Positions 11,201-39,425 of a DNA stretch of 44,952 bases are shown here, in pieces. The notes beneath the pieces were generated by a model. The model made no database searches, was not told the origin of the DNA, and saw only the letters and a list, made by a program, of their open reading frames with translations. The stretch comes from Bacteroidota bacterium (GTDB lineage: Bacteria > Bacteroidota > Bacteroidia > Palsa-948), in contig SCSP01000278.1 of assembly GCA_004297845.1 (NCBI GenBank), positions 1 through 44,952 of the forward strand, read 5' to 3'. Both the position numbers and the translations under genes were made by a program. How positions within the stretch are numbered: position 1 is the stretch's first letter; each line of letters starts with the position of its first letter.

Positions 11201-11375
11201 TATTCTGGGGCAGGAAGTGATCCAGTTGGTTGCTGCAGATCAGCCTCAAAATGCAGGTGCGCATGAACTGAAAGTAAATTCTGCGGATTATGAACTCTCA
11301 GGTGGTATTTATTTTCTTAAATTCACAACCGAAGGTTTTTCCAAGATGATCAGGTTGGTGAAAACCGGTAATTAA
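8229..11375 (+). CDS. CotH kinase-family protein, paralog 2 (same domain order, T9SS CTD)
   Basis: Collinear with 4978-8154 over its full length. It carries the same LTD, NGQYWGVYEMRERQDENY and KWRYVLWDTDLG motifs and a C-terminal VYPNPFTD...GIYFLKF...RLVK. Confidence 0.88.
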   Translation: MNFIRLSLIGFLLSDVCQLLYSQVVINELSSANDAVVADEDGDYEDWIELYNPTNVTISLNKYSFLYEVPNEAPVSWTFPKIFIKPRQHLLIFASKKNRKEAIDHWEVPIFADSTWRYKVNTASGPAANWYQPTYSDISWLQGKGGFGYADGDDQTNTGAAYSVFLRKNFSVTDTSKYSLGVLMIDYDDAFVAFLNGVEVARSNIGAFGDHPVYNVSAYDEHEAKLYQGGSQEFFFVQLKNSLKPGNNVFSIQAHNYSGGMDDLTVMPWLILGSKDTAQQFISFPAEFRMHTNFSLSSTEGFKLTLKDSLGAIKDSLTLGPKNMQANNSKGRNPDGSVSWCLFWGPSPADTNDVTQCFGTYSAKPAFNLPAGFYTGVQTLSITVPAGTAVFYTRNGNNPMWTDSMYTGSIIIDSTQVIRARAFALSGTDLPSSTITNSYFINENSTLPVISLCTDSVNLWDWNTGIYVMGPNADTVNLPNQNANFWMPWKKQAHTEFFTKNKLLGFEQDCATEIHGNFSRAWPQKSFRIMANDDYQDPYINYKLFPEKNITKFKSFNIRNAGIDWNTCHFRDRLMHDIVQKKTDIDIMDGEACLLFLNGQYWGVYEMRERQDENYIAGNHNVSPDSIDLLRFEGDILEGSNAAFYGMVGFLANNNMAIQANYDSAQKLIDIENYSDYFITETYYNNWDWFWTDLANNTQGTNNIKFWRGTNPVTKWRYVLWDTDLGMALMDGAAVNCPQNLFGTITDPVITSPSLHIVMLKAMLQNTSFKNYFVNRYCDLMNTVFHPDSVLAKVNNVRTELQPEMARQFARWNGGPITIFGAWDVGRSIDIPTWLNEIDTLEEFVNCRPYNVRDSLQAEFALTKQVDVTLDVSPAGAGKIHLNTIDPVPYPWTGIYMDGVPITMTAIPNTGYVFSHWQAPILIPTPVSTASVSLNVTVNETFTAYFTPIPPGVDPLEASLGLGVYPNPFTDDFSVTYTLHQDEKISVRLFDILGQEVIQLVAADQPQNAGAHELKVNSADYELSGGIYFLKFTTEGFSKMIRLVKTGN

Positions 11376-16367: not shown

Positions 16368-17765
16368 ATGAATTTTGAAGTTACCGAAGAATTTCTCGAC
16401 AAAGTTTCAGCTGCTGTCAGATCCAACGACATAAAGTGGCTCGATAAGCAATTGAAGAAATTGCATTCGGCTGATATTGCTGAAATCCTCAATGAGATAG
16501 ATCTGGATGAGGGTAAAAAATTATTTTACTTTTTGGATGATAAACTTGCTGCTGATGCCCTTATTGAAATGGAAGAAGACAGGCGAGAGCGTTTTTTGGC
16601 TCTCCTTACTTCCGAACAGATTGCTGACCAGATTGATCATCTTCCTTCAGACGAAGCAGCTGACGTTATAGCGGAACTTCCGGACAAGGTACAGGATGAA
16701 GTATTGCGCGAGTTAGAAAAGGACGATGCCGGCCAGGCAAGTGATATTGTGGACCTGCTGAAATACGATGAGAATACTGCAGGAGGCTTGATGCAGAAAG
16801 AGCTTGTAAAGGTGCGGGCGGATAAGAATATGATTGATTGCGTGCGTGAACTCCGGAAGCATGCCGATCATATTGAGGATGTTTTCGCAATTTATGTCGT
16901 AGATGACGCTGAAAGATTAGTGGGAGTTATTCCACTTAAAAAAATTCTTACAAACTCCCTCAAAGCAAAAATTTCGGACGTGTACGCTCCTGAAGTTTTT
17001 TCGGTAAAAACAAGTATGGATGCTGAGGAGGTTGCTAAGGTGATGGAAAAGTACAACCTGGTTTTTATGCCGGTGGTGGACGGACTCGGTAAACTAGTTG
17101 GGCGCATCACCATTGACGATATAGTGGATGTAATTCGTAAGGAGGAAACCGAAGATGTGCATAAAATGGCTGCGGTGCAGGTGCTGGACGAATCGTACAT
17201 GAGCAGTTCTGTTTGGGAGGTCATCAAGAAACGATCCGGATGGCTGATGATACTTTTTGTTGGAGAAAGTTTTACCGCAACTGCCATGAGTTTTTTTGAA
17301 GATCAGATCGCTAGAGCGGTTGTGCTTGCCTTGTTTGTTCCGCTCATTATTTCAAGTGGAGGCAACACGGGTTCCCAGGCAAGCACGCTCATTATCCGTT
17401 CGCTTGCACTGGGAGAAGTAACCGTGCGCGACTGGTGGAAAATATTCAGCAAGGAGATAAAAGTAGGAATCGTGCTGGGGCTCATTCTCGGCATATTTGG
17501 TTTTCTGCGTGTTGCCGTATGGAATTCCTTTCTACACGTGTATGGAGAACACTGGATCTTGGTTGCAGTTACCGTAGGGTTATCTTTGATCGGGGTGGTG
17601 CTTTGGGGAAACCTGATGGGCACCCTTTTCCCTTTCATCCTCAAACGTTTAGGTCTCGACCCTGCCGTTTCTTCTGCACCTTTTGTAGCAACCATGGTGG
17701 ATATTACAGGACTGCTTATCTACTTCACCATTGCTTCGCTGCTGCTTACCGGAGTGCTTCTTTAA
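16368..17765 (+). CDS. mgtE: Magnesium transporter MgtE
   Basis: MgtE N-domain, tandem CBS region, and a membrane domain with GGNTGSQAS and PFVATMVDITGLLIYF. Confidence 0.95.
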   Translation: MNFEVTEEFLDKVSAAVRSNDIKWLDKQLKKLHSADIAEILNEIDLDEGKKLFYFLDDKLAADALIEMEEDRRERFLALLTSEQIADQIDHLPSDEAADVIAELPDKVQDEVLRELEKDDAGQASDIVDLLKYDENTAGGLMQKELVKVRADKNMIDCVRELRKHADHIEDVFAIYVVDDAERLVGVIPLKKILTNSLKAKISDVYAPEVFSVKTSMDAEEVAKVMEKYNLVFMPVVDGLGKLVGRITIDDIVDVIRKEETEDVHKMAAVQVLDESYMSSSVWEVIKKRSGWLMILFVGESFTATAMSFFEDQIARAVVLALFVPLIISSGGNTGSQASTLIIRSLALGEVTVRDWWKIFSKEIKVGIVLGLILGIFGFLRVAVWNSFLHVYGEHWILVAVTVGLSLIGVVLWGNLMGTLFPFILKRLGLDPAVSSAPFVATMVDITGLLIYFTIASLLLTGVLL

Positions 17766-17776
17766 AGCGGATACCA

Positions 17777-18766
17777 ATGAAAATACTTTTTCTCGATTCT
17801 GCACACCCTTCCCTGAGAAAAGAACTGGAGAAGAATAATTTCATTTGCGAAGAGGATTTCATTTCTTCCAAAGAGGACATTAAAAAAAATCTTGCCAACT
17901 ATGATGGAATTATACTCCGAAGCCGTATTAATATAGATAAGCCCTTCATCGATTGTTTTCTTCTTTCAAGGCCGGGGCGGATGCCATTCATCGCCCGCGT
18001 TGGTGCCGGCATGGAGCATATTGATGTTGCTTATGCGGAAAGCAAAGGAATAAAATGCCTTTCTTCTCCTGAAGGAAACCGCAATGCTGTTGCCGAGCAT
18101 GCACTCGGTATGTTATTGAACCTCTTGAATAATATTTCCAAAGCCAATGCTGAAGTGAAAGCGGGGAAATGGCTGCGTGAACCCAACCGCGGAACTGAGT
18201 TGGAAGGAAAGACCATCGCTATTTATGGTTATGGGAATACGGGCTCTGCTTTTGCGAACGTGCTGAGAGGATTTGACGTTAATATCCTCGCATATGATAA
18301 GTACCGGGCTGTCTTGCCTCCCTTGGGAGGGGGTGTAGGGGGAGGACTTCAGGAATCCACTCCCGAAGAAATCTTTGTCCAAACCGACATCCTCAGCCTG
18401 CACCTGCCTTTGACCGAGGAAACAAAATACCTCGTTAACGATTCCTTCCTCAGTAAATTCAAAAAGAACATTTACCTCATCAACACCTCCCGCGGTCCGA
18501 TTGTAAAAACCGATGACCTGGTTAAAAACCTCCAGAGCGGAAAAGTGCTGGGCGCGTGTCTGGATGTTATCGAATATGAAGAAACATCCTTTGAGGCTGT
18601 TAAACCCGGAACATTAAACCTTGAACCCGGAACTCAAAATGATTGGGTTTTTTTATCGGATAGTAAAAATGTTATTTTGACTCCGCACATTGCCGGATGG
18701 AGCTTTGAAAGCAGCAAAAAGATGGGGAGGATATTGGCGGAGAAAATAATTGCTTTGAAAAAATAG
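17777..18766 (+). CDS. D-isomer-specific 2-hydroxyacid dehydrogenase (PGDH-like)
   Basis: The track ORF 17435-18766 overlaps mgtE. The realistic start is MKILFLDSA at 17777. NAD fold GKTIAIYGYGNTGSAF, catalytic-region TPHIAGWS. Confidence 0.85.
   Translation: MKILFLDSAHPSLRKELEKNNFICEEDFISSKEDIKKNLANYDGIILRSRINIDKPFIDCFLLSRPGRMPFIARVGAGMEHIDVAYAESKGIKCLSSPEGNRNAVAEHALGMLLNLLNNISKANAEVKAGKWLREPNRGTELEGKTIAIYGYGNTGSAFANVLRGFDVNILAYDKYRAVLPPLGGGVGGGLQESTPEEIFVQTDILSLHLPLTEETKYLVNDSFLSKFKKNIYLINTSRGPIVKTDDLVKNLQSGKVLGACLDVIEYEETSFEAVKPGTLNLEPGTQNDWVFLSDSKNVILTPHIAGWSFESSKKMGRILAEKIIALKK
18317..18345 (+). repeat. GC-rich palindromic element copy inside the dehydrogenase CDS
   Basis: CCTCCC-TTG-GGAGGG hairpin plus a GGTGTAGGGGGAGG tail, read in-frame as PPLGGGVGGG. 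Confidence 0.7.
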
Positions 18767-18790
18767 TAACTTCGTAAGACGAAATTTACC

Positions 18791-19141
18791 ATGTTTCAAA
18801 TAATAACAATAACTGATTCTGTCGCCTTATCGGAATTAAGATTGATGGCCGAAAATCAGTTTGGTTCTCTGATTAAAGGTGTAGTGGATATTGAAAAATG
18901 CATAATGGCTGTTGGAGGAGAAATGCATGCGGATGAAGAAGCGCACCTAATTGATGAAGGCAGCAGCCAGGAAAATCTTTGGGGCATAAATATTCACCCG
19001 GAAAAGGAAATGCCGGAAAGGATCGAGTTTGACTCCATGATTAACATACGTCCTTATCTGGGTAACCGCTCCCGTAGCGTTGAAAACCACGGTACTCAAA
19101 AGCGGATACTTGAAATTGTATCAAATCTTATTAAAGAATAG
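18791..19141 (+). CDS. DUF5674-like small protein
   Basis: 116 aa. VVDIEKCIMAVGGEMHADEE...ENLWGINIHPEK...FDSMINIRPYLGNRSR resembles the DUF5674 family as I recall it. Confidence 0.55.
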   Translation: MFQIITITDSVALSELRLMAENQFGSLIKGVVDIEKCIMAVGGEMHADEEAHLIDEGSSQENLWGINIHPEKEMPERIEFDSMINIRPYLGNRSRSVENHGTQKRILEIVSNLIKE

Positions 19142-19145
19142 AACA

Positions 19146-19487
19146 ATGGCATTTCAGCATTCGAATATGGCAGCGGGCAAATGGTTTGGCTATACACTCT
19201 GCCAGCAGATGGGGAATATTGGCAGCGAAGTTGGAAGAGCGGCCCGATGGCAGGGTAAGGACATGAAACTTTTTGAAGGGGCGGTTTTTCGTGCCATTGA
19301 ATTACTTGATCTTACTTTAACAGACCCCCGCTGGAAAAACCGTTTCCGCGAGATTGCCCGGGCAAAGGAAACAGTATGTGATGCATTTACCGGAGGTAAG
19401 GAGTATAATTCTACTTTTCCTGAACTTGAAAGATATTTTTATCATTTTGCCTATGCGGCCCGGAATTCCGTGGGGCGCAAAGGCTGA
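19146..19487 (+). CDS. Hypothetical small helical protein
   Basis: The track ORF starts at 19080 and overlaps the previous gene. The likely start is MAFQHSN at 19146, 4 nt after the upstream stop. No family recognised. Confidence 0.5.
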   Translation: MAFQHSNMAAGKWFGYTLCQQMGNIGSEVGRAARWQGKDMKLFEGAVFRAIELLDLTLTDPRWKNRFREIARAKETVCDAFTGGKEYNSTFPELERYFYHFAYAARNSVGRKG

Positions 19488-19545
19488 TCGCCTTCAAATA
19501 GCAGTGCAATTGCCAGGAATAATTAGATCTCTAAAAATGAGCTAA

Positions 19546-20824
19546 GTATCTGTAACGAAATAAGGTTTACAAAATTGGCTTTATTGTATAGTTCCATTCT
19601 CCATGAAATTCACTTTTTATAATATTAATTTTTCTTAGTTTTTCATCTGAGACCTTTACTCCTTTCTCGTACACTCCTTTATCCAATTTTGATTTTACTT
19701 TTAATCCTTTACTTGTTTTAGTTGCTGCAATTAAATCCACTACCAATTGAATATTGGTTAAGGGTTTCGCCCTCCAATTCATTGTAATGTGTGAAAATAA
19801 TCGATGCTCTATTTTATTCCATTTGCTTGTACCCGGTGGAAAATGACTTACTGTTATTTCTTTACCTATTTCATCTGCTAATACCTGTAACTCTATTTTC
19901 CACAATCTACTCCTCGAACTGTTACTTCCTCCGCCATCCGCTGTAATAAATAGTCGTTTCGATTCGCTGAATTTTTCTTTCCCCATTTCTTCCCACCAAT
20001 TTCTTATTGTTGATACCGCAAAACTGGCTGTATCATGGCTGATGCCAACACTTACCCAGCCTTCATTATTAGCCACATCATAAACACCGTAAGGAATTGC
20101 TTTGCCTAGATTTTTATCTATAAAGTCGTACACCTTTACCGTTGTTGGCTTTCCTTTTGAATGCCATTCTTTGCCCGCGTTCTTGAAGTTTCCAATCAAT
20201 TCTTTTTTCTTGCAATCAACCGATATTACAGGGTCGCTATTACCTAAAAAACCTTTTGCTAATTCATTAATGTAATTAAATTGTGTGTCTCTATCAATGT
20301 GCTTGCCGCCTTCATGTGTTTTCCGATTCCCTTGTAAGCTATAGCCACTATTTTTTAAAATAACACCTGCTAATTTGTGACTTATGTTGTATCCCATATT
20401 TTTGGCCGCATCAGCTATATTGCGCAAACTTTTATTTGTCCAAAGCAACGGCTTCATTGGGTCGCCCATTGTATGTGGACTAACTATTTCTTCTATTACT
20501 TTTTCTAAATTGGTATTTTTTTCCGTTTCTTTCTTTCGTCCGCCCCCTTCTTTTCTTATCCGTTCATTGGTTGTATCTTTTTTTACAGGAACTGAAGCCA
20601 ACTCTCTAATCCCAATATTTAAAGTCACCCTTGAAACTCCCGAGAGTTTCGACACTTTACTTAGTCCACCCCTTCCCATACTTTCTGCATCTGCAGCCAA
20701 TACTATTCTGGTTTGTCTCTCATTTAAATGGGGAAGTATTTTTTTATACTTCTTTCGGATAAGGATATCTGTTTGCATACATTTTGTGTTTTCACAAATG
20801 TACATATTATTTCGTTACAGATAC
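19546..20824 (-). mobile_element. Intact IS element, ISAzo13 family
   Basis: Perfect 18-bp terminal inverted repeats GTATCTGTAACGAAATAA at 19546-19563 and 20807-20824. TAA flanks both ends (19543-19545 and 20825-20827). A single transposase ORF fills the element. Confidence 0.85.
19567..20805 (-). CDS. ISAzo13-family DDE transposase
   Basis: 412 aa with PVISVDCKKKELIGNFKNAGKEW, PYGVYDVANNEGWVSVGISHDTASFAV, ITADGGGSNSSRSRLWK, HFPPGTSKWNKIEHRLFSHI and FHGEWNYTIKP. Confidence 0.9.
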   Translation of the reverse strand: MYICENTKCMQTDILIRKKYKKILPHLNERQTRIVLAADAESMGRGGLSKVSKLSGVSRVTLNIGIRELASVPVKKDTTNERIRKEGGGRKKETEKNTNLEKVIEEIVSPHTMGDPMKPLLWTNKSLRNIADAAKNMGYNISHKLAGVILKNSGYSLQGNRKTHEGGKHIDRDTQFNYINELAKGFLGNSDPVISVDCKKKELIGNFKNAGKEWHSKGKPTTVKVYDFIDKNLGKAIPYGVYDVANNEGWVSVGISHDTASFAVSTIRNWWEEMGKEKFSESKRLFITADGGGSNSSRSRLWKIELQVLADEIGKEITVSHFPPGTSKWNKIEHRLFSHITMNWRAKPLTNIQLVVDLIAATKTSKGLKVKSKLDKGVYEKGVKVSDEKLRKINIIKSEFHGEWNYTIKPIL

Positions 20825-21177
20825 TAAGATTCAATTTTTCCTGATTTTAAACAAAGCGTGGACTGCCACTCGTGTGACAACAGCCCGCTCCGTGAGACCA
20901 ACACGCTGGTAGCCGGACATATCCCCGACCCTACAACCAACGGGCCCGACAGTCTCCCTTTAACCACTTTGTCACGGTTTTTGAGATCACACACTGCTTG
21001 CACATTGCCGTGCTCGTGTCTGCGCGCGGCAAAGATCAAGCGTGAGGCTCCATCAAAAAACCGCGCCCAAAAATCACCATGCTATCCGTTCTTAGCTATA
21101 TAATCCGTAATCATTTGTTTTCAACAATTAAAATTTTTGAAGGGATATTGTATAAATTAGCCCAAAATTCAATAATA

Positions 21178-22869
21178 ATGATAAAAGAACCTGTAAAAAA
21201 GAAAAAGAGGTACAAGGTTGCCTCAAAACCTTCGGTTGTAAAAGAATGTGAAGAAAACTATTTCTTAACCCCACCGAAGCATTTAAAAAGAGAAGAAACA
21301 TTCCTATCCATTAAGGAGGCCAGTGAATTTGCCAGTAATTATCTAAAAAGAAATGTTACCACCTCAAATATTTCCTATCTCATTCAATATGGCAGAGTAA
21401 AAAAAATTGGCGACAATGGCTCTACACTCATTGATAAAAATGAATTACTCGAATATTATCAATCTTATAATGGCACAAGAGCGGTAGAATGGAAAGAAAA
21501 ATTAGGGAAGGATTTAAATTGGACTTTATCCTTTGACGAATATAAAGAAGCCGAAACTACCAAACATGTTCACCGACTCCACCCATATAAAGGAAAATTT
21601 ATTCCGCAACTAGTTGAATACTTTTTAGATGCCAAGACCGATAAATTCAAAAAGGAAGTTTATTTCAAAGAAGGTGAAATAGTTCTTGACCCATTTTGCG
21701 GAAGCGGAACAACTCTTGTTCAGGCAAGTGAATTAGGGATGCACGCAATCGGCATAGATGTTTCCACGTTCAATGCAATGATCAGCAATGTTAAGATTGG
21801 GAAATATGACATTGAAGACATAAAAAAGGAAGCCGACAAAATCTCATCCGCGCTCAATCAGTTTATTACCAATTCCAAAACAGTTGCATTTGAAACCCGA
21901 CTGCTTGAAGAGTTAAATAAATTCAATAATAAATATTTTCCTGTTCCTGAATATAAATACCAGTTAAAACAAGGTAAAATAAACGAAGATAAATTCGGAG
22001 CGGAAAAAGAAAAAGAATTCCTTCCAACATTTGACAAATTAGTTAAAGAATATAAAATTGAATTAAGGCAAAAGAAGTCTGATACATTTCTTGATAAATG
22101 GTATTTACAACATGTGCGAACAGAAATTGACTTTGTATACGATCTGATACGAAAAATAAAAAATGAAAACACGAAAAAGATTTTAAGCGTTGTACTCAGC
22201 CGAACAATCCGCTCCTGCCGTGCAACTACTCATGCAGATTTAGCAACCCTTTTCGAACCAATAACTTCCACATATTATTGCCAAAAACATGGCAAAATGT
22301 GCAAGCCATTATTTTCCATTCTTAAATGGTGGGACAGTTACAGCAAAGACACTCAGAAAAGATTAAAAGAATATAACGTATTGCGAAAAGAAACCCAGCA
22401 GGTTTGCCTTACAGGTGATTCGCGCTCGATAGACATTTTCAATGCATTGAAAGAGCAAAATCCTTCTTTCGCCCGGCTTGCAAAAGGATTAAAGATTAAA
22501 GGAATTTTTTCATCGCCACCCTATGTAGGCGTAATCGATTACCATGAACAACATGCTTACGCGTATGATTTGTTTGCCTTTGAAAGAAAAGATAGTCTTG
22601 AAATTGGTCCGCTTATTAAAGGTCAGGGGCGGGAAGCAAAAGAATCATACACAAAAGGAATTTCAGATGTATTAAACAATTGCAAAAAATTCTTTGTTCA
22701 AGATTACGATGTTTTTCTTGTCGCAAACGACAAATACAATATGTATCCAACCATTGCCGAACTTGCCGGCATGAAAATTGTTAATCAATATAAACGACCT
22801 GTATTAAACCGCACGGAGAAAGATAAAGGAGCCTATTCAGAAATCATTTTTCATTTGAAAGGGAAATAA
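21178..22869 (+). CDS. Type II DNA amino-methyltransferase (motif I upstream of SPPY)
   Basis: AdoMet motif LDPFCGSGTTLVQA and catalytic motif IFSSPPYVG about 280 aa downstream. The likely start is MIKEP at 21178; the track ORF begins at 21079. Confidence 0.82.
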   Translation: MIKEPVKKKKRYKVASKPSVVKECEENYFLTPPKHLKREETFLSIKEASEFASNYLKRNVTTSNISYLIQYGRVKKIGDNGSTLIDKNELLEYYQSYNGTRAVEWKEKLGKDLNWTLSFDEYKEAETTKHVHRLHPYKGKFIPQLVEYFLDAKTDKFKKEVYFKEGEIVLDPFCGSGTTLVQASELGMHAIGIDVSTFNAMISNVKIGKYDIEDIKKEADKISSALNQFITNSKTVAFETRLLEELNKFNNKYFPVPEYKYQLKQGKINEDKFGAEKEKEFLPTFDKLVKEYKIELRQKKSDTFLDKWYLQHVRTEIDFVYDLIRKIKNENTKKILSVVLSRTIRSCRATTHADLATLFEPITSTYYCQKHGKMCKPLFSILKWWDSYSKDTQKRLKEYNVLRKETQQVCLTGDSRSIDIFNALKEQNPSFARLAKGLKIKGIFSSPPYVGVIDYHEQHAYAYDLFAFERKDSLEIGPLIKGQGREAKESYTKGISDVLNNCKKFFVQDYDVFLVANDKYNMYPTIAELAGMKIVNQYKRPVLNRTEKDKGAYSEIIFHLKGK

Positions 22870-22871
22870 CG

Positions 22872-23061
22872 ATGAAAGAAATTACACTTTACGAAATCAC
22901 AACTGAGGATGTGATAACTGTTTCAGAAGAAATTAATATCCCCTTTACTAAAAAGGATTTACAATTTATTCAAGATAAAATCGGAGATTTTTTTAGGAGA
23001 CAAGTGGCAAGATGCTGTTGAATATGCTCTAGTAGAGTTAAATAATAACAAGAAATTATAA
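22872..23061 (+). pseudogene. Small ORF between methyltransferase and endonuclease, split at a T7 run
   Basis: Frame 0 (22872-23021) encodes 49 aa. After the T7 run at 22988-22994 the +1 frame continues as LGDKWQDAVEYALVELNNNKKL. That frame ends in a TAATG overlap with the next gene's ATG at 23061. Confidence 0.4.
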
Positions 23062-23837
23062 TGGCTCTTACAAAACTCGAAGTCCAATCCATAGAAGAAG
23101 TCCTCAAAAACTGCTTGCGTAATAAATTTCAAAATTATAAGCCAGAACCCGCATCCATGCCTTTTCATACACGTTTACTCGGCACAGACAGGTTAGCATT
23201 GTTTTCCTTTATTCATTCGCTCAACACAAATTTCGGCACTACAATTTTTGAACCCGTTGCGAAAACATTAGCAGCAAAAAACTTTAAAGCAGTTCATTCA
23301 CAGGCACAAGCAGGAGATCAAATCAGCGAAGCAGCACATAAAGTAATTCAAGGAATAATGGACAATCTGACTACTGCAGGCGCTGCTCCAAATAAAGCGC
23401 AAGAAATAGAAGCAATCCGTAAGGTTTGCCAAAAAGGGAAAATGAAAAAGATAAAACCGACATTAGTTGATGTGTGGGTAGAAAGTAAATCCGGTGAATT
23501 ATTCTTGTTTGATATTAAAACTGCAAAACCAAATGCTGGTGGCTTTAAAGAATTTAAAAGAACATTATTAGAATGGGTTGCAGTAGTCCTATCTGAAAAT
23601 CCTAAAACAAAAATTAACACAATAATCGCCATCCCTTACAATCCTTATGAGCCAAAGTCTTATTCCCGCTGGACAATGCGCGGAATGTTGGATTTGGACA
23701 ATGAATTAAAAGTGGCAGAAGAATTTTGGGACTTCCTCGGAGGAAAAGGCACTTACATAGAATTACTCGGTTGTTTTGAAAGAGTAGGAATAGAATTAAG
23801 GCCGGAAATAGATAAATATTTTTCAAGATTTAAATAA
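23061..23837 (+). CDS. Probable type II restriction endonuclease (possibly TdeIII-like)
   Basis: 258 aa, translationally coupled downstream of the MTase module. PD-(D/E)xK-like DVWVES...LFLFDIKTAKPN. The MPFHTRLLG...FSFIHSLNTNFGTTIFEPV block resembles TdeIII-family sequences from memory. Confidence 0.5.
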   Translation: MALTKLEVQSIEEVLKNCLRNKFQNYKPEPASMPFHTRLLGTDRLALFSFIHSLNTNFGTTIFEPVAKTLAAKNFKAVHSQAQAGDQISEAAHKVIQGIMDNLTTAGAAPNKAQEIEAIRKVCQKGKMKKIKPTLVDVWVESKSGELFLFDIKTAKPNAGGFKEFKRTLLEWVAVVLSENPKTKINTIIAIPYNPYEPKSYSRWTMRGMLDLDNELKVAEEFWDFLGGKGTYIELLGCFERVGIELRPEIDKYFSRFK

Positions 23838-23974
23838 TTCCTTTGCATAAGCTAATGTATTTTACAGATGCGGACATGCAGGAAATGCATGTTCTCCTCA
23901 AAGACAAGGAGATAAGTTGGCAGGCAATGAAAGAGGTGATCTGAAAGGCGGTTAAAAGTGCAACCTGATTCCCC

Positions 23975-29549: not shown

Positions 29550-29717
29550 GCTGGTTACGAATTACGAATTTTGTTACGAATGTTACTAATTTCCCTCAGG
29601 CTGTTTTTTTGTATGTTTCAAATGTCGAACTCCTGATCTTAACTTTTGCATGTCGTTTTATTAGTTATCCACAAACTTTTTAACCTCGTCTTTCTCCCTT
29701 TAGGGTCGGGGCCTGTA

Positions 29718-31394
29718 CTAATGTTTAAAATGCCGAACGCCTGTAAATACCATAGACATCTTATTCTTGTCGCAGTAATCAATGGAATCCTTGTCTTTTA
29801 CCGAGCCTCCCGGCTGAACAACGGCCGTGATACCTTCGTTATGGGCTATTTCCACGCAATCGGGGAAAGGGAAAAAGGCGTCTGATGCCATTACTGCGTC
29901 TCTCAGGTCAAAACCGAAGTTTTTTGCTTTGAGAATAGCCTGCTTCAGTGCGTCCACCCGGGATGTTTGCCCAATTCCGCTGGCGAGTAGTTGCCCGTTC
30001 TTTGCCAGGACGATTGTATTCGACTTGCTATGCTTTACAATCTTATTCGCAAATACCAGGTCATTCAATTTCTCCTTGGACGGAATTGCTTTAGTGACTG
30101 GTTTCATATCATCTGCAGATTCGGTTTTAAAGTCCCGGTCCTGTTCCAGGTAGCCATTCAGGGCGGTGCGGATGAGTTTTGCAGAAAGTTCAGCAGATTT
30201 TTGCCGGAGGATTATGCGGTTTTTTTTTTGTTTTAGCAAAGTAAGAGCCGTTTTGTCATACGAAGGGGCGATGATCACTTCGAAAAAAAGTTTGTTTATT
30301 TCTTTTGCTGTAACTTCATCCACGTTTGCATTGGTTATCAGGATACCGCCAAATGCAGAAACCGGGTCACCGGCAAGGGCATTTTTCCAAACATCTGTGA
30401 GATTTTTCCCGGATGCAATCCCGCAGGCATTATTGTGCTTTAAAATGGCGAAGGTGATAGCCCCTTTTAATTCCCCCGAATGGAGAAAAATAGCATCTGC
30501 TGAACCCTCCCTTTGGTGGGTGGGTGGGCTGAATTCCGCCATGAGGTTTACCGCAGCATCAATATCCAGGAGATTATTGTAAGAAAGTTCTTTTCCGTTT
30601 AGCTGTGCGAACATCTTTTCAAAGTCACCGTAGAACGTCCCTTTCTGGTGCGGATTTTCACCGTAGCGGAGCGACTTTGTCCCGATAGCTATCGGGATTA
30701 CGGCAGAACCGCTCATCGCCTCACTCCCATCCCCTCTCCTCGGGGAGAGGGGGTCAACAGCCCCGGAAAAATAGGTGTGTATAGCCGTGTCATAGTTTGA
30801 CGAAACTCCAAATGCTTTTGTTGCCAGAAATTTTCTATCTTCAAGAGTAGAAACACCTTTTTTATCCTTTAGAATTTTTAAAAGATACGAGTATTCATTT
30901 TTGGAAGGAACAATAACCACGTCATTAAAATTTTTTGCTGCGGCACGAATGAGGGAAATTCCGCCAATGTCAATCTTCTCGATAATTTCGGTCTCGGCTG
31001 TTAGACCCCCTTCTCCCCCAGGAGAAGGGTTAGGGGATGAGGTGTGTTTTGAAACGGTCTCTTCAAACGGATACAGATCAACGATCACCAGATCTATCTG
31101 CGGAATTTTATATTCTTCCAACTGCGCCACATCGCTTTGCAGTTCTCTGCGGCTCAAAATGCCTCCGAAAATTTTAGGATGCAGTGTTTTTACTCTTCCT
31201 CCCAAAATGGAAGGGTAGGAAGTAAGCTCTTCCACCGGGGTAACTTTCACCCCTGATTTTTCTATAAACTCTTGAGTTCCTCCGGTGCTGAAAACGGTTA
31301 CGCCAAGCTCGCCTAATTTTTTTACGATGGGTTCAAGATGGTCTTTGTAAAAAACGGAAATGAGAGCGCTTTTAATTTTCTTATCTCCGGTCAT
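29718..31394 (-). CDS. purH: Bifunctional AICAR transformylase / IMP cyclohydrolase
   Basis: VFSTGGTQEFI, KTLHPKIFGGIL, IDIGGISLIRAAAKN, RYGENPHQ, ILKHNNACG and VVQPGGSVKD. The ORF is lengthened by several in-frame repeat insertions. Confidence 0.95.
   Translation of the reverse strand: MTGDKKIKSALISVFYKDHLEPIVKKLGELGVTVFSTGGTQEFIEKSGVKVTPVEELTSYPSILGGRVKTLHPKIFGGILSRRELQSDVAQLEEYKIPQIDLVIVDLYPFEETVSKHTSSPNPSPGGEGGLTAETEIIEKIDIGGISLIRAAAKNFNDVVIVPSKNEYSYLLKILKDKKGVSTLEDRKFLATKAFGVSSNYDTAIHTYFSGAVDPLSPRRGDGSEAMSGSAVIPIAIGTKSLRYGENPHQKGTFYGDFEKMFAQLNGKELSYNNLLDIDAAVNLMAEFSPPTHQREGSADAIFLHSGELKGAITFAILKHNNACGIASGKNLTDVWKNALAGDPVSAFGGILITNANVDEVTAKEINKLFFEVIIAPSYDKTALTLLKQKKNRIILRQKSAELSAKLIRTALNGYLEQDRDFKTESADDMKPVTKAIPSKEKLNDLVFANKIVKHSKSNTIVLAKNGQLLASGIGQTSRVDALKQAILKAKNFGFDLRDAVMASDAFFPFPDCVEIAHNEGITAVVQPGGSVKDKDSIDYCDKNKMSMVFTGVRHFKH
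30680..30697. repeat. Family B palindrome TCCCGATAGCTATCGGGA inside purH
   Basis: Identical to the 18-mer at 2452-2469. It is translated as part of AVIPIAIGTKS in the inter-domain linker. Confidence 0.85.
30719..30755 (-). repeat. GC-rich palindromic element copy inside purH
   Basis: CCTCACTCCCAT-CCCCTCTCC-TCGG-GGAGAGGGG, read as DPLSPRRGDGSEA. Confidence 0.8.
31007..31045 (+). repeat. GC-rich palindromic element copy inside purH (opposite orientation)
   Basis: CCCTTCTCC-CCCA-GGAGAAGGG-TTAGGGGATGAGGTG, read on the other strand as SSPNPSPGGEGG. Confidence 0.8.
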
Positions 31395-33743: not shown

Positions 33744-36700
33744 TCATTTCTTTATCGTTGCAAGAATACTCACCGCAGTGTCAATATCTTTTATGTTCTC
33801 AATTTTGAGTGTCAGTTTACTTTCGCCCTCATTCATGGAGCAGGTTTTTGGATTGCTTTGTACAAACTGTAAAATCTGCGAGAATTTTTTGCTTTGGTAG
33901 TAAGGCGATTTTTGGTTAGAGACAAACCAAGCGGTGATTTTTTTATTTTTCAAAATAAGTTTTTCAAAACCAAGTTCAACGGCCAGCCATCGAAGGCGAA
34001 CTACACTAATCAGTTTTTTCACCTGATTGGGAACAAGTCCAAATCGGTCTTGTAAATGTTTTTCGAAAGCGACAAGTTGATCCTCTGTTTTGCTGTTGTC
34101 TAATTGCCGGTATAGTGCAATTCGTTCCGAAATGCTTTCAACATATTCTTCCGGAATCAATACTTCCAGATCGGTATCTATTGTGCAATCGCGAACGAAG
34201 TTTCTGTCCTCTAAGTTCCGGCTTCCGGCTGTTTCATTGCCTACTGCCAACTGCCTGCCGTCTACTTCTTCACGCAATTCCTGCATCGCTTCATCCAGAA
34301 TTTTCTGATACATCTCGTAGCCAATATCCGTAATGAACCCGCTTTGCTCTGCTCCCAGCAGATTCCCCGCTCCGCGTATATCGAGATCGCGCATGGCAAT
34401 GTTGAATCCGCTGCCGAGGTCTGAAAATTCTTCTATGGCACGAAGGCGTTTTTTTGCTTCGTTGGTGAGGGATGCGAAAGGGGGAGTGAGCAGGTAGCAA
34501 AATGCTTTTTTATTGGAACGGCCCACGCGTCCGCGCAATTGGTACAGGTCGCTTAGCCCGTAGTTCTGTGCATCGTTGACAATTATTGTATTCGCATTTG
34601 CAATATCCAATCCGGATTCAATGATGGTGGTACAGACAAGCACATCGTAATCTCCCTCTATAAAATTAAGCATGGCTTTTTCAAGCGCTTCACCTGTCAG
34701 TTGCCCGTGGGCGACAAGCACTCTTGCCTTTGGGCATAACTTCTGAATGAGTTCGGCATATCGCCCAATATTCTGTACGCGGTTGTGTACGAAGAATACT
34801 TGCCCGCCCCGTTGAAGTTCGTATTCGATGCCCTCTTTGATCGTTTTTTCGTTGAACTGACCCACTTCTGTGTGAATGGGATATCGGTTAGGAGGCGGGG
34901 TGTTGATCACGGAAAGATCCCGTGCCCCCATCATGGAGAACTGAAGCGTTCGCGGAATGGGCGTTGCGGTGAGTGTAAGTGTGTCCACATTCTCTTTCAG
35001 TGTTTTCAACTTGTCTTTTGCGCCAACACCGAATTTTTGCTCTTCATCCACAACCAACAAACCAAGGTCTTTGAATTTTATGTCTTTTCCCAGAAGGCGG
35101 TGAGTACCGATAAGTATATCAACTTTTCCTGCTTCTAATTTTTTCAATGTTTCCTTTTGATCCTTCAAAGATTTAAACCGATTTATGTAATCCACCGTGA
35201 CGGGAAATCCTTTCATCCGCTCTGCAAAAGTCTTGTAGTGTTGAAGAGCGAGAATGGTGGTGGGTACGAGCACTGCAGTTTGTTTTCCATCCAATACTGC
35301 CTTGAATGCCGCACGAATGGCAATTTCTGTTTTTCCGAAGCCAACATCTCCGCAGATCAGCCTGTCCATGGGGAATTCCTGTTCCATGTCGCGCTTCACA
35401 TCTGCAGTTGATTTCACCTGGTCCGGGGTGTCTTCGTATAGGAAGGAAGATTCTATTTCATTCTGCAGATAATTATCAGGAGAAAAGGCAAACCCTTTCT
35501 GCGCTTTCCGTTTCGCATAAAGTTTGATCAGATCGAAGGCAATCTCCTTCACCTTTTTTTTTGTTTTTCGTTTCAGGTTCGTCCATGCGTTGGAGCCGAG
35601 CTTGTCCAAACGGGGTGCTTCACCCTCTTTCCCGGAATGTTTGGCAATCTGGTGAAGTGAGTGAATGCTTATGTGAAGTGTGTCGTTGTCTTTGTAAACC
35701 AATCGAATTGCTTCCTGCCACCTCACCCCCGACCCCTCTCCTGCAGGAGAGGGGAGCACTATCTTCTCCATGCCACCAAAACGACCAATCCCGTAATCAA
35801 TGTGGGTGACATAATCTCCTGGCTGAAGGGACTTCAGCATTTTAATGGTAAGCGCCTCGTTCTTTTTAAAATTGCTGTTCTTGAGTTTATATCGGTGATA
35901 GCGCCCAAATATCTGGTGATCGGTGTAGCAGGAAATTTTGTTGTCGTTGTCAATGAAACCTTCGTGTATTCCTCCCTGATCCTCTCCGAACGGAAACCGC
36001 ATAGCTATTTCCACCGTTGCTGGGAAAAGGCTTTCGTAAATTGCCCGAAGCCGTTCCATTTGCTTCGGATTGTCAAAAAGAATAAGATTGCTGTATCCGT
36101 TTGAGTTTTGTTTGTTCAGGTTCTCAAACAACAGGTCAAAATTTTTGTTGAAGGAAGGTTGGGGGGAGAAGTTGAAACCGACCTCACCCATAATCTCTCT
36201 TCTTGAGGAGTGGGGAGAAGAACTAAATTCGATGCAGGGAACATTTGAAAATTCACTTTTCAGTTCCTCGCTGGAAATGAAAAGTGTGGATGCGTCTTTT
36301 TCGAGTACTGATTTCAGCCCTTCGTCAATAGTGCTGAGAATATGGTTTTCGTTGTCGAGCCAGACGAAAAGGTTACTTTTGCTTTCCAGTATGTAGTCCA
36401 GAATAGAGGTTGATTTTCCCTCTGCTAATTTCTCCTGAATATTCGGAAGGATACTTGCTTTGTCAAAATTCTGAAGTGAGAGCTGGTTGGCGGTATCAAA
36501 TGTTCGGATGGACTCCACTTCATCTCCTGCAAGTTCGATGCGGAAGGGGGCATCATTGGCGAAAGAAAATATGTCCACAATCCCTCCGCGAACAGAATAT
36601 TGTCCCGGCTCTATCACGTAATCACACCGTTCAAACCCATACTCATTTAAAAGGTCGGTTAAAAATTGCAGGGAGATTTTTTCTCCTTTATTAATATCAA

Positions 36701-37172
36701 TCGAATTTTTTTCAAGAAACTCTTTTGAAATAACTTTTTCTGCAATGGCCTCAGGATAGGAAATGATGGTAAGTGATCCCTGTCGGATGGCATTTAATAC
36801 TTCGGCTCTAAGTTGAATGGAGGGTGTGCCCAGTTCCTCGGTAGTGAAGGGACGCTTGAAGGAAGAAGGGAAAAACCTCACCCCCGACCCCTCTCCCGCA
36901 GGAGAGGGGAGTGAAACAGCCAGGGTTTCCAGATCATTCAGAACATAGGCTGCCTGTTCTTTGTCCTGTAGAATAACCAAGTGGATACCCGGCCGGTGCT
37001 CCGAAACTGCACGGATTATGAAAGAAGCGGAAGAACCGGAAAACCCCTTTGCGGAAACCGACTTCTTTTCTCTTAGACATTCCGAAATGGACAACACCCT
37101 TTCATCTCCGAAATAAATTTTCAGAAGCGATGAAAGATCAATAGCAGAATTTTCTGCTTGCCCCATATACAT
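33744..37172 (-). CDS. mfd: Transcription-repair coupling factor
   Basis: 1142 aa. UvrB-homology N-terminus, GDVGFGKTE (Walker A), DEEQKFG, the TATPIPRT helicase core and a TRG/C-terminal domain. It holds two in-frame repeat insertions. Confidence 0.95.
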   Translation of the reverse strand: MYMGQAENSAIDLSSLLKIYFGDERVLSISECLREKKSVSAKGFSGSSASFIIRAVSEHRPGIHLVILQDKEQAAYVLNDLETLAVSLPSPAGEGSGVRFFPSSFKRPFTTEELGTPSIQLRAEVLNAIRQGSLTIISYPEAIAEKVISKEFLEKNSIDINKGEKISLQFLTDLLNEYGFERCDYVIEPGQYSVRGGIVDIFSFANDAPFRIELAGDEVESIRTFDTANQLSLQNFDKASILPNIQEKLAEGKSTSILDYILESKSNLFVWLDNENHILSTIDEGLKSVLEKDASTLFISSEELKSEFSNVPCIEFSSSPHSSRREIMGEVGFNFSPQPSFNKNFDLLFENLNKQNSNGYSNLILFDNPKQMERLRAIYESLFPATVEIAMRFPFGEDQGGIHEGFIDNDNKISCYTDHQIFGRYHRYKLKNSNFKKNEALTIKMLKSLQPGDYVTHIDYGIGRFGGMEKIVLPSPAGEGSGVRWQEAIRLVYKDNDTLHISIHSLHQIAKHSGKEGEAPRLDKLGSNAWTNLKRKTKKKVKEIAFDLIKLYAKRKAQKGFAFSPDNYLQNEIESSFLYEDTPDQVKSTADVKRDMEQEFPMDRLICGDVGFGKTEIAIRAAFKAVLDGKQTAVLVPTTILALQHYKTFAERMKGFPVTVDYINRFKSLKDQKETLKKLEAGKVDILIGTHRLLGKDIKFKDLGLLVVDEEQKFGVGAKDKLKTLKENVDTLTLTATPIPRTLQFSMMGARDLSVINTPPPNRYPIHTEVGQFNEKTIKEGIEYELQRGGQVFFVHNRVQNIGRYAELIQKLCPKARVLVAHGQLTGEALEKAMLNFIEGDYDVLVCTTIIESGLDIANANTIIVNDAQNYGLSDLYQLRGRVGRSNKKAFCYLLTPPFASLTNEAKKRLRAIEEFSDLGSGFNIAMRDLDIRGAGNLLGAEQSGFITDIGYEMYQKILDEAMQELREEVDGRQLAVGNETAGSRNLEDRNFVRDCTIDTDLEVLIPEEYVESISERIALYRQLDNSKTEDQLVAFEKHLQDRFGLVPNQVKKLISVVRLRWLAVELGFEKLILKNKKITAWFVSNQKSPYYQSKKFSQILQFVQSNPKTCSMNEGESKLTLKIENIKDIDTAVSILATIKK
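35719..35755 (-). repeat. GC-rich palindromic element copy inside mfd (copy 1)
   Basis: CACCTCACCCCCGA-CCCCTCTCC-TGCA-GGAGAGGGG, read as LPSPAGEGSGVRW. Confidence 0.85.
36876..36910 (-). repeat. GC-rich palindromic element copy inside mfd (copy 2)
   Basis: CCTCACCCCCGA-CCCCTCTCC-CGCA-GGAGAGGGG. It differs from copy 1 by one loop base and is read as LPSPAGEGSGVRF. Confidence 0.85.
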
Positions 37173-37214
37173 TATAAAGATAGCGAGAAAATCCTGATGC
37201 AGTTGGCTACTGTT

Positions 37215-37252
37215 CCTCCTCTCCTTTGGGGAGGGGGTTAGGGGGAGGGGTG
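37215..37252 (+). repeat. GC-rich palindromic element copy, intergenic (between TPR gene stop and mfd start)
   Basis: CCTCCTCTCC-TTTGG-GGAGGGGG-TTAGGGGGAGGGGTG. It ends 2 nt before the stop codon at 37254-37256. Confidence 0.8.
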
Positions 37253-37253
37253 T

Positions 37254-39425
37254 TTATTGTCCCGTCAATTCCCTAACCTTATCCCTATACTCTTCCGATT
37301 TATCTTTATCGCCCATCAGCTCGTAGGTTACCGCTAAGTTTCCCAATGCCTGTGTATTAGTGGGATACAATGCAACAACTTTGTTCAGCACTTCAATATT
37401 TTTAGGATAGTTTTTGAGCATTCCGTAGCAATTTGCCAGGTTTACGAGTGCATCTACAAAAGTTGGATTTAATTGTGTAGATTTATCCAGACAACGAGCC
37501 GCATTTACATAATCGCCTTTCGATGCGTAGTCGGTTCCGAGTTTGTAGTAGAACTGAAAATCGCGGGTATTCTCCGGTGTTGAATTCTCTACCGAATCAA
37601 GATTAGTGGAAGTAGGAAAAATCCGCACATCCAATCCTGTCTTTTTCTGGTGATTGTCCCGGTTTTTTTTACCATCCGGGAAATACGGATTCACATCTAC
37701 CGCTTTGTTATAATAATAAGATGCCACTTCATTTTTTCCGAGACCTTCATATAGAATCCCCATGTTGTTATAGCTGATCGCATAACCGGGCGCTTCCTGA
37801 ATGGCACGGGTATAATAATAGATAGCTGAATCATTATTTATCCGCACGGTTTGATACGCAACGCCTAATTTGAAATAGGCATCACCGAATCGTGGATTTA
37901 TTCTCAATGCCTCCTTGATCTGCCCGGTCCCTTTATCAAACCATTCGTTTTTTTCTTTCTGGTCCTTTGCTGAAATTCCCATGTTGATGAGCTCGCTTCC
38001 GTAATGCCTGCGTACCTGGCAGGAGTTGGGGGATGCATTTACATCGGTGGAGAAAAGCGTCATGTTATCGTGCCAAATAGGGTTGCGGGTAACTGTCTTG
38101 AAAGAATACAGAATGAAAATGACCAATAAGAGGCCCGGTCCCAAACCCTCCCGAAGGGAGGGGAGTTTGTACGACTTTTGCATCCAATAATTTTGGATTG
38201 TCGCCCAACCCGAGCTTCGCTCCCAACCTACGGTTGTCCTTTGGGGAGATACGAGAGAGGCTAAACACACAATGACTATGCTGAATCCCAGGGAGGGAGC
38301 GTATAAGAATCGTTCCGCAAAAATGCCTCCGCGAAGAAATACAAAGGCCATCGCGGGGGCCAGCGTGGCGCAGAAGAGCAGGACACCCAACGATACAGGA
38401 TTTTTTTTAAGCAGGCCTTTGAAACTGAAATATGCGAGGGTTATAGTAAGCAGGAATCCGAACAGCACACCGGCCGAGGCAAAGGTTACAGCGGGTATCT
38501 GGTTGTAGGAGTAATCATAAGTCAGCGGGTGAGGAAATAGTATCATCCGGATAGAATGCATAAAGATATAGAATGTGGTAGGGAGTTTGGTGCCTGCTTC
38601 GGCATAGGGGTAGTTTACAATGTCTTTTGGGATTTGCGCTTCAAGTGATCCAAGTACACCCAATTTGTGCATTTGAAAAATAAGTATCATTAGCGCAAAT
38701 GGAATTGCCCTGAGCAAACTTTGTTTGAAATTCAAATTGGATCTGAAAAATATTGCCAGAGGGGCGATGAGCAGTCCGGTCATGGCCGATTCTTTGGAAA
38801 GCAGGGCGAGATAAAAGAAAATAGAGGAGAGGATCAGAAGTTTGAAATTTATTTTTGTATCCTTGTAAGCTGCGAGCAAGATGTATATTCCAACGATAAG
38901 ATTGAGAAAGGATAGTATCTCATCCCGGCTTTTGATATTTGCCACTACTTCCGTGTGAATGGGGTGTGCAATAAACAGCAGCGTAATTGCAAAGGAAAAT
39001 ACGGGATGATAATTCCGGAAAAGATTCATCAAAAGCATGCAGAGGAAAAATCCGGTGAGGGCGTACAGAATCACATTTCCCAAATGGCTCACATGAGGGT
39101 TGCCCGGAAAGAATTCATTTTCAATGGCGAACGTAATCATGGAGAGGGGGCGGTAATACCCCAGGTTCACATTATCAAAATGCCACATACCAACGCTCAG
39201 GATCTTTGGAATACCGCTGATACCTTCTGTTACATATTCATTCCCGGTGATTGCGCCCACATCGTCCAGCACATATTCATGCTTAACGGTGTCCAGATAA
39301 AGACAGAAACCAACTACTGTGCATATCACCGCGAACCATATATTTGGTTCAAAGGTTGGTAATACAGCTTGTTTGGGCTTTGCCTGTTTTTGTGGAGCGC
39401 TTTTTATAGGTTTCTTGGGAGCCAT
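37254..39425 (-). CDS. Polytopic membrane protein with C-terminal TPR repeats (TMTC / PMT-like glycosyltransferase architecture)
   Basis: About 10 TM helices at the N-terminus, followed by multiple TPR units (AYFKLGVAYQ, AISYNNMGILYEGLG, VDALVNLANCYG, ALGNLAVTYE). Confidence 0.75.
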   Translation of the reverse strand: MAPKKPIKSAPQKQAKPKQAVLPTFEPNIWFAVICTVVGFCLYLDTVKHEYVLDDVGAITGNEYVTEGISGIPKILSVGMWHFDNVNLGYYRPLSMITFAIENEFFPGNPHVSHLGNVILYALTGFFLCMLLMNLFRNYHPVFSFAITLLFIAHPIHTEVVANIKSRDEILSFLNLIVGIYILLAAYKDTKINFKLLILSSIFFYLALLSKESAMTGLLIAPLAIFFRSNLNFKQSLLRAIPFALMILIFQMHKLGVLGSLEAQIPKDIVNYPYAEAGTKLPTTFYIFMHSIRMILFPHPLTYDYSYNQIPAVTFASAGVLFGFLLTITLAYFSFKGLLKKNPVSLGVLLFCATLAPAMAFVFLRGGIFAERFLYAPSLGFSIVIVCLASLVSPQRTTVGWERSSGWATIQNYWMQKSYKLPSLREGLGPGLLLVIFILYSFKTVTRNPIWHDNMTLFSTDVNASPNSCQVRRHYGSELINMGISAKDQKEKNEWFDKGTGQIKEALRINPRFGDAYFKLGVAYQTVRINNDSAIYYYTRAIQEAPGYAISYNNMGILYEGLGKNEVASYYYNKAVDVNPYFPDGKKNRDNHQKKTGLDVRIFPTSTNLDSVENSTPENTRDFQFYYKLGTDYASKGDYVNAARCLDKSTQLNPTFVDALVNLANCYGMLKNYPKNIEVLNKVVALYPTNTQALGNLAVTYELMGDKDKSEEYRDKVRELTGQ
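38133..38165 (-). repeat. Degenerate GC-rich palindromic element inside the TPR membrane protein gene
   Basis: CCCTCCC-GAA-GGGAGGG hairpin with a GGTCCCAAA flank, read as LPSLREGLGPG. Confidence 0.6.

Follow-up and report, generated by a model that had tools for sequence, protein, structure and literature searches.

Short hairpin repeats inserted in frame in three loops of a Bacteroidota PurH

The purH gene of a Bacteroidota bacterium (GTDB lineage Bacteria; Bacteroidota; Bacteroidia; Palsa-948) encodes an enzyme that is longer than most of its relatives, which raises the question of where the additional residues come from and why they are found in just three places of the protein. The gene is located at positions 29718–31394, on the reverse strand, of contig SCSP01000278.1 (NCBI GenBank assembly GCA_004297845.1); the stretch that was analyzed, in the following referred to as the window, comprises positions 1–44,952 of the forward strand of this contig. 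In an initial annotation of this DNA, purH was described as a hotspot harboring at least three in-frame repeat insertions. Four elements at three sites were found, i.e., two copies from a family of hairpin repeats, a short palindrome and a larger two-hairpin element, all of which are read in frame, are located in loops and are patchily distributed among the relatives. The explanation that we consider probable is that mobile families of hairpin repeats insert throughout the genome, and that copies which are in frame and free of stop codons survive in tolerant loops, including these three loops of PurH.

The enlarged PurH and its segments of variable length

The purH reading frame is intact and encodes a bifunctional AICAR formyltransferase/IMP cyclohydrolase of 558 amino acids, composed of an MGS domain (Pfam E 2.1e-16) and an AICARFT_IMPCHas domain (E 1.2e-98). 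The protein matches solved PurH structures by sequence (4ehi, E 8.6e-96), and an AlphaFold2 model of the protein matches PurH folds (Foldseek E 1e-47). All residues at the invariant columns of the alignment (K69, Y108, D142, K154, K319 and H320) are kept in the window PurH, as are the IDIGG and KH(N) motifs. The ratio of nonsynonymous to synonymous substitution rates (dN/dS) is 0.04–0.07, i.e., about 0.05, relative to four orthologs, with dS >1.4 throughout, which indicates strong purifying selection. The two domains, the retained invariant residues and the purifying selection together identify the protein as a PurH, and judged from its sequence the gene looks functional. The interrupted, non-functional gene that the initial annotation had named as the contrary case was not found. 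A profile search of genome contigs with the PurH alignment yielded named relatives from Bacteroidota only, with an identity of at most 61% among the matches listed. The gene order MacB-like permease, purH, mreB, mreC, mreD-like gene, PBP2 and rodA is common to the window and the related contigs, and the window also encodes components of type IX secretion.

Among the best 120 homologs, the usual length of PurH is 507–508 amino acids, so that the expectation in the initial annotation, i.e., that 558 residues exceed the typical length, is borne out. Alignments of the relatives confine the variation in length to three segments. The first (site 1) follows the motif EETVxK and usually comprises 5 residues (e.g., TKDEK), compared with 19 in the window (+14). 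The second (site 2) is the inter-domain linker with usually about 20 residues, compared with 32 (+12), and the third (site 3) precedes TFAILKHNNACG and usually comprises 3 residues (e.g., SET), compared with 25 (+22). Together with two additional residues at the N-terminus, these differences account fully for the excess of 50 residues. In the alignment of orthologs that had been proposed as a check of the initial annotation, the additional segments are not conserved in the family, and most relatives display the short forms of 5, about 20 and 3 residues. In the following, L-numbers refer to related DNA loci that were compared and P-numbers to related PurH proteins, while alignment A1 is composed of the window PurH and 30 other sequences.

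Mapping of the segments onto the structure, also suggested at the outset, placed all three inserts in coil of low confidence between confidently modeled elements. The mean predicted local distance difference test (pLDDT) score of the AlphaFold2 model is 83, and values below 50 are found at residues 126–129, 215–234 and 293–307, which correspond to the three insertion sites, as well as in a conserved loop at residues 60–71. The sites are flanked by helices (H) or strands (E), i.e., H110–118 and H133–139 at site 1, H184–210 and E239–244 at site 2, and H272–286 and E313–319 at site 3. All three insert segments are gaps in the alignments to 4ehi and 3zzm, in agreement with the earlier statement that the insertions fall where PurH sequences are variable. 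The fourth low-confidence segment, the conserved YPSILGGRVKTL at residues 60–71 (about 31182–31217), is not an insertion; a flexible loop left unresolved in the model of the monomer is the probable reason for its low score. Another observation concerns L075 (Candidatus Symbiothrix dinenymphae), whose PurH carries an insert of about 36 residues (GIAGQARKDDPVGGEAANHGSPVGSEAARHCGLDPQSPA) between KKNRIIL and FRSLLNG. This is a fourth PurH site, unused in the clade of the window, and the insert looks like another repeat-encoded peptide.

Repeat elements at the three sites

Family A, the best represented of the repeats, is about 40 nucleotides (nt) long, with a C-rich box that precedes a hairpin, whose stem is a perfect 9 bp and whose loop comprises 4 nt. 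The consensus of 16 aligned copies from the window and its relatives is ACACCTCACCCCTAACCCCTCTCC-N4-GGAGAGGGGAG. A covariance model was built from this alignment and searched over the window, where matches with E ≤ 10 were listed. Seven full copies were identified: purH holds two and mfd three, a further copy is located in the spacer that separates mfd from a TPR gene, and the last one is at 1671–1712. Hairpins with a C/T-rich 5' arm occur 10 times in the window, compared with 1.07 times in shuffled sequence, and three window copies match the exact family A pattern, compared with none expected.

At site 1, a family A copy is found at 31004–31046 on the reverse strand, i.e., in the sense orientation relative to the gene (48.4 bits, E 1.9e-9); the initial annotation had placed it at 31007–31045 and had noted correctly that its orientation is opposite to that of the copy in the linker. 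It is built from the C-box ACCTCATCCCC, the linker TAA and the 9-bp hairpin CCCTTCTCC-TGGG-GGAGAAGGG (−10.1 kcal/mol), and encodes SSPNPSPGGEGG right before IEKIDIGG in the IMP cyclohydrolase domain. The net gain of 14 residues corresponds to codons 117–130 (HTSSPNPSPGGEGG), which are empty in L001, L003, L005 and L006 in a codon alignment.

At site 2, the family A copy in the inter-domain linker, previously reported at 30719–30755, was recovered at 30715–30756 on the forward strand, i.e., antisense to the gene (44.4 bits, E 1.5e-8). Its hairpin CCCCTCTCC-TCGG-GGAGAGGGG also has a perfect 9-bp stem (−10.7 kcal/mol, z −3.2), and the copy encodes DPLSPRRGDGSEA, with a net gain of about 7 residues. 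About 20 nt away, as had been described, is the 18-nt perfect palindrome TCCCGATAGCTATCGGGA (30680–30697, with no strand assigned; fold z −4.6), which defines family B and encodes (V)IPIAIG, with a net gain of 5 residues. The B-encoded residues are lacking from each of the other 30 sequences that make up alignment A1. The 14-nt core of family B is found twice in the window, compared with 0.04 times expected by chance; the second palindrome (2454–2467, with no strand assigned) is intergenic, between the open reading frame (ORF) at 1546–2436 and a lipoyl synthase gene. The tetranucleotide in front of this palindrome is CGTC, which tags one superfamily of repetitive extragenic palindromic sequences (REPs), and that in front of the purH copy is TGTC. 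In L209, a B palindrome with one mismatch, TCCCGATAGCCATCGGGA, is nested within the long element at site 3. Because of this nested copy, family B also appears to be an inserting unit. The motif LPIAIV of P0012 could not be confirmed as a further copy.

The segment before ILKHNNACG, i.e., site 3, had been described as a degenerate hairpin insertion of the same kind. The insertion is real, with a net gain of 22 residues (SPPTHQREGSADAIFLHSGELKGA) directly before the strand with the KH motif. Its assignment to family A was rejected, as the model finds no match there at E ≤ 10, and the segment was reassigned to a longer element. Comparison of the sequences shows that a two-hairpin palindromic element of about 75–80 nt, distinct from family A and with homologs in relatives, is present at site 3 (30459–30530, reverse strand) as a copy that has decayed. 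The outer arms are AGCCCaCC...GGGGCT, and the inner hairpins are CCCACC-AAA-GGGAGGG and TTCTCC-ATTC-GGGGGAA. Homologs at the same place in purH are found in L003, L208, L209 and L210, and those of L003, L209 and L210 are intact. Intact elements fold at −28 (L003, z −4.9) and −30.8 kcal/mol, compared with only −11.3 kcal/mol (z 0.1) for the window copy.

The pairing in the family A stems is kept despite changes on both arms, as seen from a comparison of CCCTTCTCC/GGAGAAGGG with CCCCTCTCC/GGAGAGGGG. Sites 1 and 2 together comprise 36 stem positions, of which only one differs between the window and L002, even though the synonymous divergence is saturated. This suggests either that the hairpin is under constraint or that turnover took place after the two species had split. 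Upon reading of the consensus in six frames, stops are found in two, i.e., the TAA of the linker in one sense frame and a TGA of the G-box in one antisense frame. The four open frames encode peptides that are rich in Pro, Ser, Gly, Glu and Arg and, because of this composition, surviving copies are expected to form disordered loops.

The exact family A pattern was also found in at least 120 metagenome stretches with a G+C content from 31% to 70%. Because the pattern is common over this range, family A, or the superfamily to which it belongs, is widespread. Long stop-free stretches hold 37% of 97 exact-pattern metagenome copies, compared with 68% of random positions, and purH is absent from all of the 120 metagenome loci listed with the pattern. 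At gathering thresholds, the whole window yielded no match to Rfam 15; a search of the locus at permissive thresholds gave only a sub-threshold hit of 18 bits over the hairpin. No description of family A was found in the literature searched.

Two segments that flank purH were considered as additional copies. The 5' flank segment was rejected, with a model E of 8.8 and no hairpin. The initial annotation also listed a truncated copy just after the stop codon, i.e., GCCCCGACCCTAAAGGGAG at 29691–29717 on the reverse strand, which is doubtful as a repeat copy and was discarded as a truncated form of family A. The model does not match it at E ≤ 10, no significant hairpin is formed (z +0.44), and the segment shares with the family A copies only the 9-mer CCCCGACCC, present in two of them, and GGGAG. 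In L004, the same 22 nt likewise follow the purH stop codon. The purH–mreB spacer (29550–29690) harbors a conserved block GGTTAAAAAGTTTGTGRATAACTAAT, common to the window, L004 and L005, and repeated ATTCGTAA motifs directly upstream of mreB; both may be regulatory sequences.

Insertion history and its possible causes

In the codon alignment of seven purH genes, the three sites are seen as clean in-frame gaps, of 42 nt at site 1 and 66 nt at site 3. Loci L001, L005 and L006 are empty at both of these sites. The site 1 copy is found at an identical position, in the same orientation and frame, and with the same extra T in the C-box, in the window, L002, L004 and L087. At site 2, L003 carries the family A copy in the sense orientation, the window and L002 carry it in the antisense orientation, and the proteins P0003, P0008, P0009 and P0031 carry a third type of element there, with the motif GGGxGGG. 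Site 3 of L002 and of L004 holds a short A copy that is antisense to the gene, and that of the window and of L003, L208, L209 and L210 holds the long element. Yet other inserts are found at sites 1 and 3 in the more distant Chitinophagaceae L061 and L063 and in the group of P0044, P0045 and P0083. On a neighbor-joining tree (480 core columns; without bootstrap, so that details of its topology are weak), filled sites are intermingled with empty ones. Among the 41 closest full-length PurH proteins, 24 carry an insert at one or more sites, and the neighboring mreB, used as a control, encodes 340 residues in 9 of 9 loci.

Because the orientations are opposite and the families of elements differ, the occupants of site 2, and likewise those of site 3, are attributed to separate events, and the comparison of the sequences suggests that the same three loops were hit repeatedly and independently in related lineages. 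The description of purH as a hotspot therefore holds in the sense that its loops are re-used among relatives at a constant length of mreB. It does not hold in the sense that purH is unique, as mfd, a 2-Hacid_dh gene and a TPR gene are also hit.

In the scenario that we favor, the families of tiny G+C-rich hairpin repeats that the lineage carries, i.e., family A (about 40 nt), family B (18 nt) and the two-hairpin element (about 75–80 nt), would be mobile at present or have been so recently and would insert throughout the genome, including coding sequence. A copy would persist in a gene provided that the net change in length is a multiple of three, that the frame through the repeat is free of stops, as are four of the six frames of family A, and that the Pro/Gly/Ser/Glu/Arg-rich peptide ends up in a loop that tolerates additional disordered residues. 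In PurH, such loops would be those before IDIGG in the cyclohydrolase domain, in the inter-domain linker and before the KH-motif strand in the transformylase domain, and in the window the four elements fill all three, whereby the length of an enzyme that looks functional rises from about 508 residues to 558. The inserts would then presumably be translated and harmless. Selection rather than targeting is the likely basis of the hotspot, and the filtering of insertions to tolerated loops, which the initial annotation had put forward, is the most economical cause, with a preference for certain targets or for nesting as another possible contribution.

Several observations weigh against this scenario. 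At site 1, the pattern agrees better with targeted insertion, or with a single old insertion followed by precise losses, than with random hits. Within the window alone, purH is only modestly enriched: the gene makes up 3.7% of the window and holds 3 of 10 hairpins (Poisson p about 0.006) as well as 1 of 2 B copies, and family A hits are just as frequent in mfd. Neither a target-site duplication nor a conserved flank was seen in about 20 oriented copies, and a Y1/RAYT-type transposase was not found among 27 scanned ORFs of the window. A comparison with sister strains, as had been proposed, yielded no empty site in an otherwise identical gene in the databases searched, where the closest relative displays 81–86% protein identity. 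For this reason we infer the mobility of the elements, and with it a mechanism and an enzyme that move them, from deep comparisons only. In related loci, the share of hairpins located in purH is higher (3 of 4 in L002, 2 of 3 in L003 and 1 of 1 in L001) but biased, as these loci were chosen through purH.

Of the alternatives, the one that fares best attributes the hotspot to the mechanism of insertion and not to selection, i.e., existing hairpins or local purH sequence would be preferred DNA targets and one insertion would attract more. The site 1 copies of four lineages, which share nucleotide position, orientation and frame, are as expected from such a preference, and at site 3 the short A copy and the long element both start directly after GAATTC or GAATTT. 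In addition, elements adjoin each other, as do A and B about 20 nt apart in the window, or nest, as does B in the long element of L209, and the site 2 inserts of P0009 and P0037 are enlarged. We consider this explanation possible, if on balance unlikely, as no flanking motif is conserved over about 20 copies, different loops of the mfd, 2-Hacid_dh and TPR genes are hit as well, and all surviving sites are permissive coils, as predicted from a selection filter. Targeting and selection are not mutually exclusive and can act together.

Slightly less likely is a scenario in which each site was hit once in an ancestor, and the patchiness is due either to precise losses that occurred repeatedly or to purH segments that were exchanged among lineages. 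Here, it is again site 1 that provides the support: its copies have the derived extra T in common and group according to site and not according to genome, with mutual identities of 75–82% (61% between L002 and L087), compared with 55–79% to other copies, and possible remnants are found in P0026, P0019 and P0005. The 3' flank segment common to the window and L004 points in the same direction. The opposite orientations at site 2 and the differing families at sites 2 and 3 exclude a single event there, and the exact outgroup lengths of 5 and 3 residues, to which the empty sites conform in many separate branches, would require many exact deletions. Recent recombination with L004, considered as the source of the shared site 1 insert and 3' flank, was rejected, as comparison of purH DNA in sliding windows revealed no mosaic pattern of identity.

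A more specific mechanism, which we regard as rather improbable, is structure-guided targeted insertion, perhaps combined with precise excision, at or next to existing hairpins or at defined spots in purH. If this were the case, homing would account for the sameness of site 1, seen in four or more lineages, as well as for B being nested in other elements, and the elements would be self-reinforcing micro-transposons of coding regions.

The remaining explanations have little weight. Ordinary lineage-specific expansion of loops or low-complexity drift, for which the Pro/Gly/Ser-rich, disordered character of the peptides, seen in many variable loops, could be invoked, is very improbable in view of the same segment of about 40 nt, including its perfect 9-bp stem, in mfd and in intergenic DNA, in both orientations, its exact pattern in the at least 120 metagenome stretches, and stems that stay paired through two-sided changes. 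Least credible of all is the view that purH is a pseudogene or that the assembly is at fault and repeats have collapsed in the contig. Assemblers can be misled by short repeats and the contig is from a metagenome, but the ORF of 558 codons is intact, with dN/dS of about 0.05 and all invariant residues present, and comparable in-frame inserts are found in independent assemblies from different samples and pipelines.

Copies outside purH and related repeat systems

The mfd gene (33744–37172), which encodes the transcription-repair coupling factor, harbors three in-frame family A copies, all on the forward strand: VLPSPAGEGSGVRW at 35717–35758 (50.8 bits), which is missing from the L005 and L006 orthologs, SLPSPAGEGSGVR at 36872–36913 (48.4 bits), and the degenerate SSSPHSSRREIMGEV at 36178–36219 (44.3 bits). 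In L006, an A copy of opposite orientation occupies the first mfd loop, i.e., that of the window copy at 36872–36913. Between mfd and the TPR gene, the spacer contains an A-like copy at 37211–37252 on the reverse strand (33.7 bits, E 3.8e-6), which was outside the training set of the model, and a repeat copy is found in the equivalent spacer of L005 (2761–2781). The copy at 1671–1712 (reverse strand, 33 bits), near the 5' end of the ORF at 1546–2436, was part of the training set. In total, 8–9 of about 10 copies in the window are located within genes, which roughly matches the expectation from the coding density.

Two other genes carry related sequences. In the 2-Hacid_dh gene (ORF 17435–18766), which encodes a D-2-hydroxyacid dehydrogenase, a G-rich variant CTCCCTTGGGAGGGGGTGTAGGGGGAGG at 18313–18349 is in frame and encodes LPPLGGGVGGGL; the L003 ortholog of this gene has an insert of 22 residues in a loop that differs from that of the window (L003 9890–9910). 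The TPR gene contains the in-frame hairpin CCCTCCC-GAA-GGGAGGG at 38146–38162 (LPSLREGLGPG), and the protein is about 20 residues longer than its orthologs.

Copies of the Rickettsia palindromic elements (RPEs) occur in different states of decay. These elements, of about 100–150 bp and with several families per genome, are found in frame in unrelated housekeeping genes without destroying them (PMC10969869, PMC3733652), and are thought to be placed where fold and function of the protein tolerate them (Ogata et al. 2000, 2002, via PMC10969869, PMC3733652). The elements of the window are likewise palindromic, in frame in functional genes, of several families and decayed to differing extents. They are set apart from RPEs, which are found in Alphaproteobacteria, by their size (18, about 40 and about 75–80 nt) and their host, a member of the Bacteroidota, and in contrast to RPEs four elements are found together in a single gene of the window, whose loops serve repeatedly as insertion sites in different lineages.

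The GTAG type of REPs is associated with the RAYT (Y1) transposase. REPs tagged with GTAG or CGTC are stem-loops of 20–40 bp that are mostly extragenic (Di Nocera et al. 2013, PMC3733652), and those of the CGTC type, with stems of 8–9 bp and loops of 4–5 nt, were reported from Bacteroidetes with no known transposase (PMC3733652). Intragenic REPs are found as single units and head-to-head dimers that encode 20–30 residues, often in genes for DNA repair (PMC3733652). Family A resembles REPs in being short, G+C-rich and dispersed in many copies (seven in 45 kb), its 9-bp stem and 4-nt loop match the CGTC type, and copies are found in a repair gene, mfd. However, family A has neither a GTAG nor a CGTC tag and displays the C-rich box ACCTCACCCC instead. 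The CGTC tag precedes only one of the two B copies, with TGTC at the other, and most copies in the window are located inside genes, in contrast to the mostly extragenic REPs.

Small dispersed repeats of about 20–30 nt, which are mobile, located within genes and nested inside one another, have reportedly been described from heterocyst-forming cyanobacteria by Elhai et al. in 2008. The nesting of B in the long element is similar, while phylum and sequence differ. [quoted passage not shown] Complementary outer arms, about 9–11 nt in length, are confined to the long element; unlike in MITEs, no target-site duplications and no terminal repeats similar to those of insertion sequences were seen, and families A and B are far shorter. 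Because membership in the known groups fails on size, host and tags, the repeats of the window are distinct families of the same kind as RPEs and intragenic REPs.

Selfish DNA within protein-coding genes, best known from Rickettsia, would with these families extend to free-living Bacteroidota of environmental metagenomes and to units of 18–40 nt. PurH offers a natural map of tolerance to insertion, where three loops absorb 5 to 40 additional residues in numerous lineages at a constant length of the rest of the enzyme and of mreB, which may be useful for protein engineering and annotation. Repeat inserts inflate the annotated lengths of proteins and seed spurious low-complexity matches. Common in metagenomes and without an entry in Rfam, family A probably merits a systematic census.

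The sole transposase found in the window is of an unrelated ISAZ013-type DDE family (ORF 19567–20805), with inverted ends of 30 nt at 19542–19571 and 20799–20828. It resides in an island of about 5 kb (18767–23974) that splits 2-Hacid_dh from rodA, which adjoin each other in L003 and L006; the island also holds a DNA methylase (21079–22869) and a TdeIII-type restriction endonuclease (23061–23837). Two tandem paralogous genes with CotH domains (4978–8154 and 8229–11375) carry type IX secretion sorting tails and display a DNA identity of 71–76%, and the gene that follows this pair (11432–13087) contains seven internal repeats with a period of 162–165 nt.

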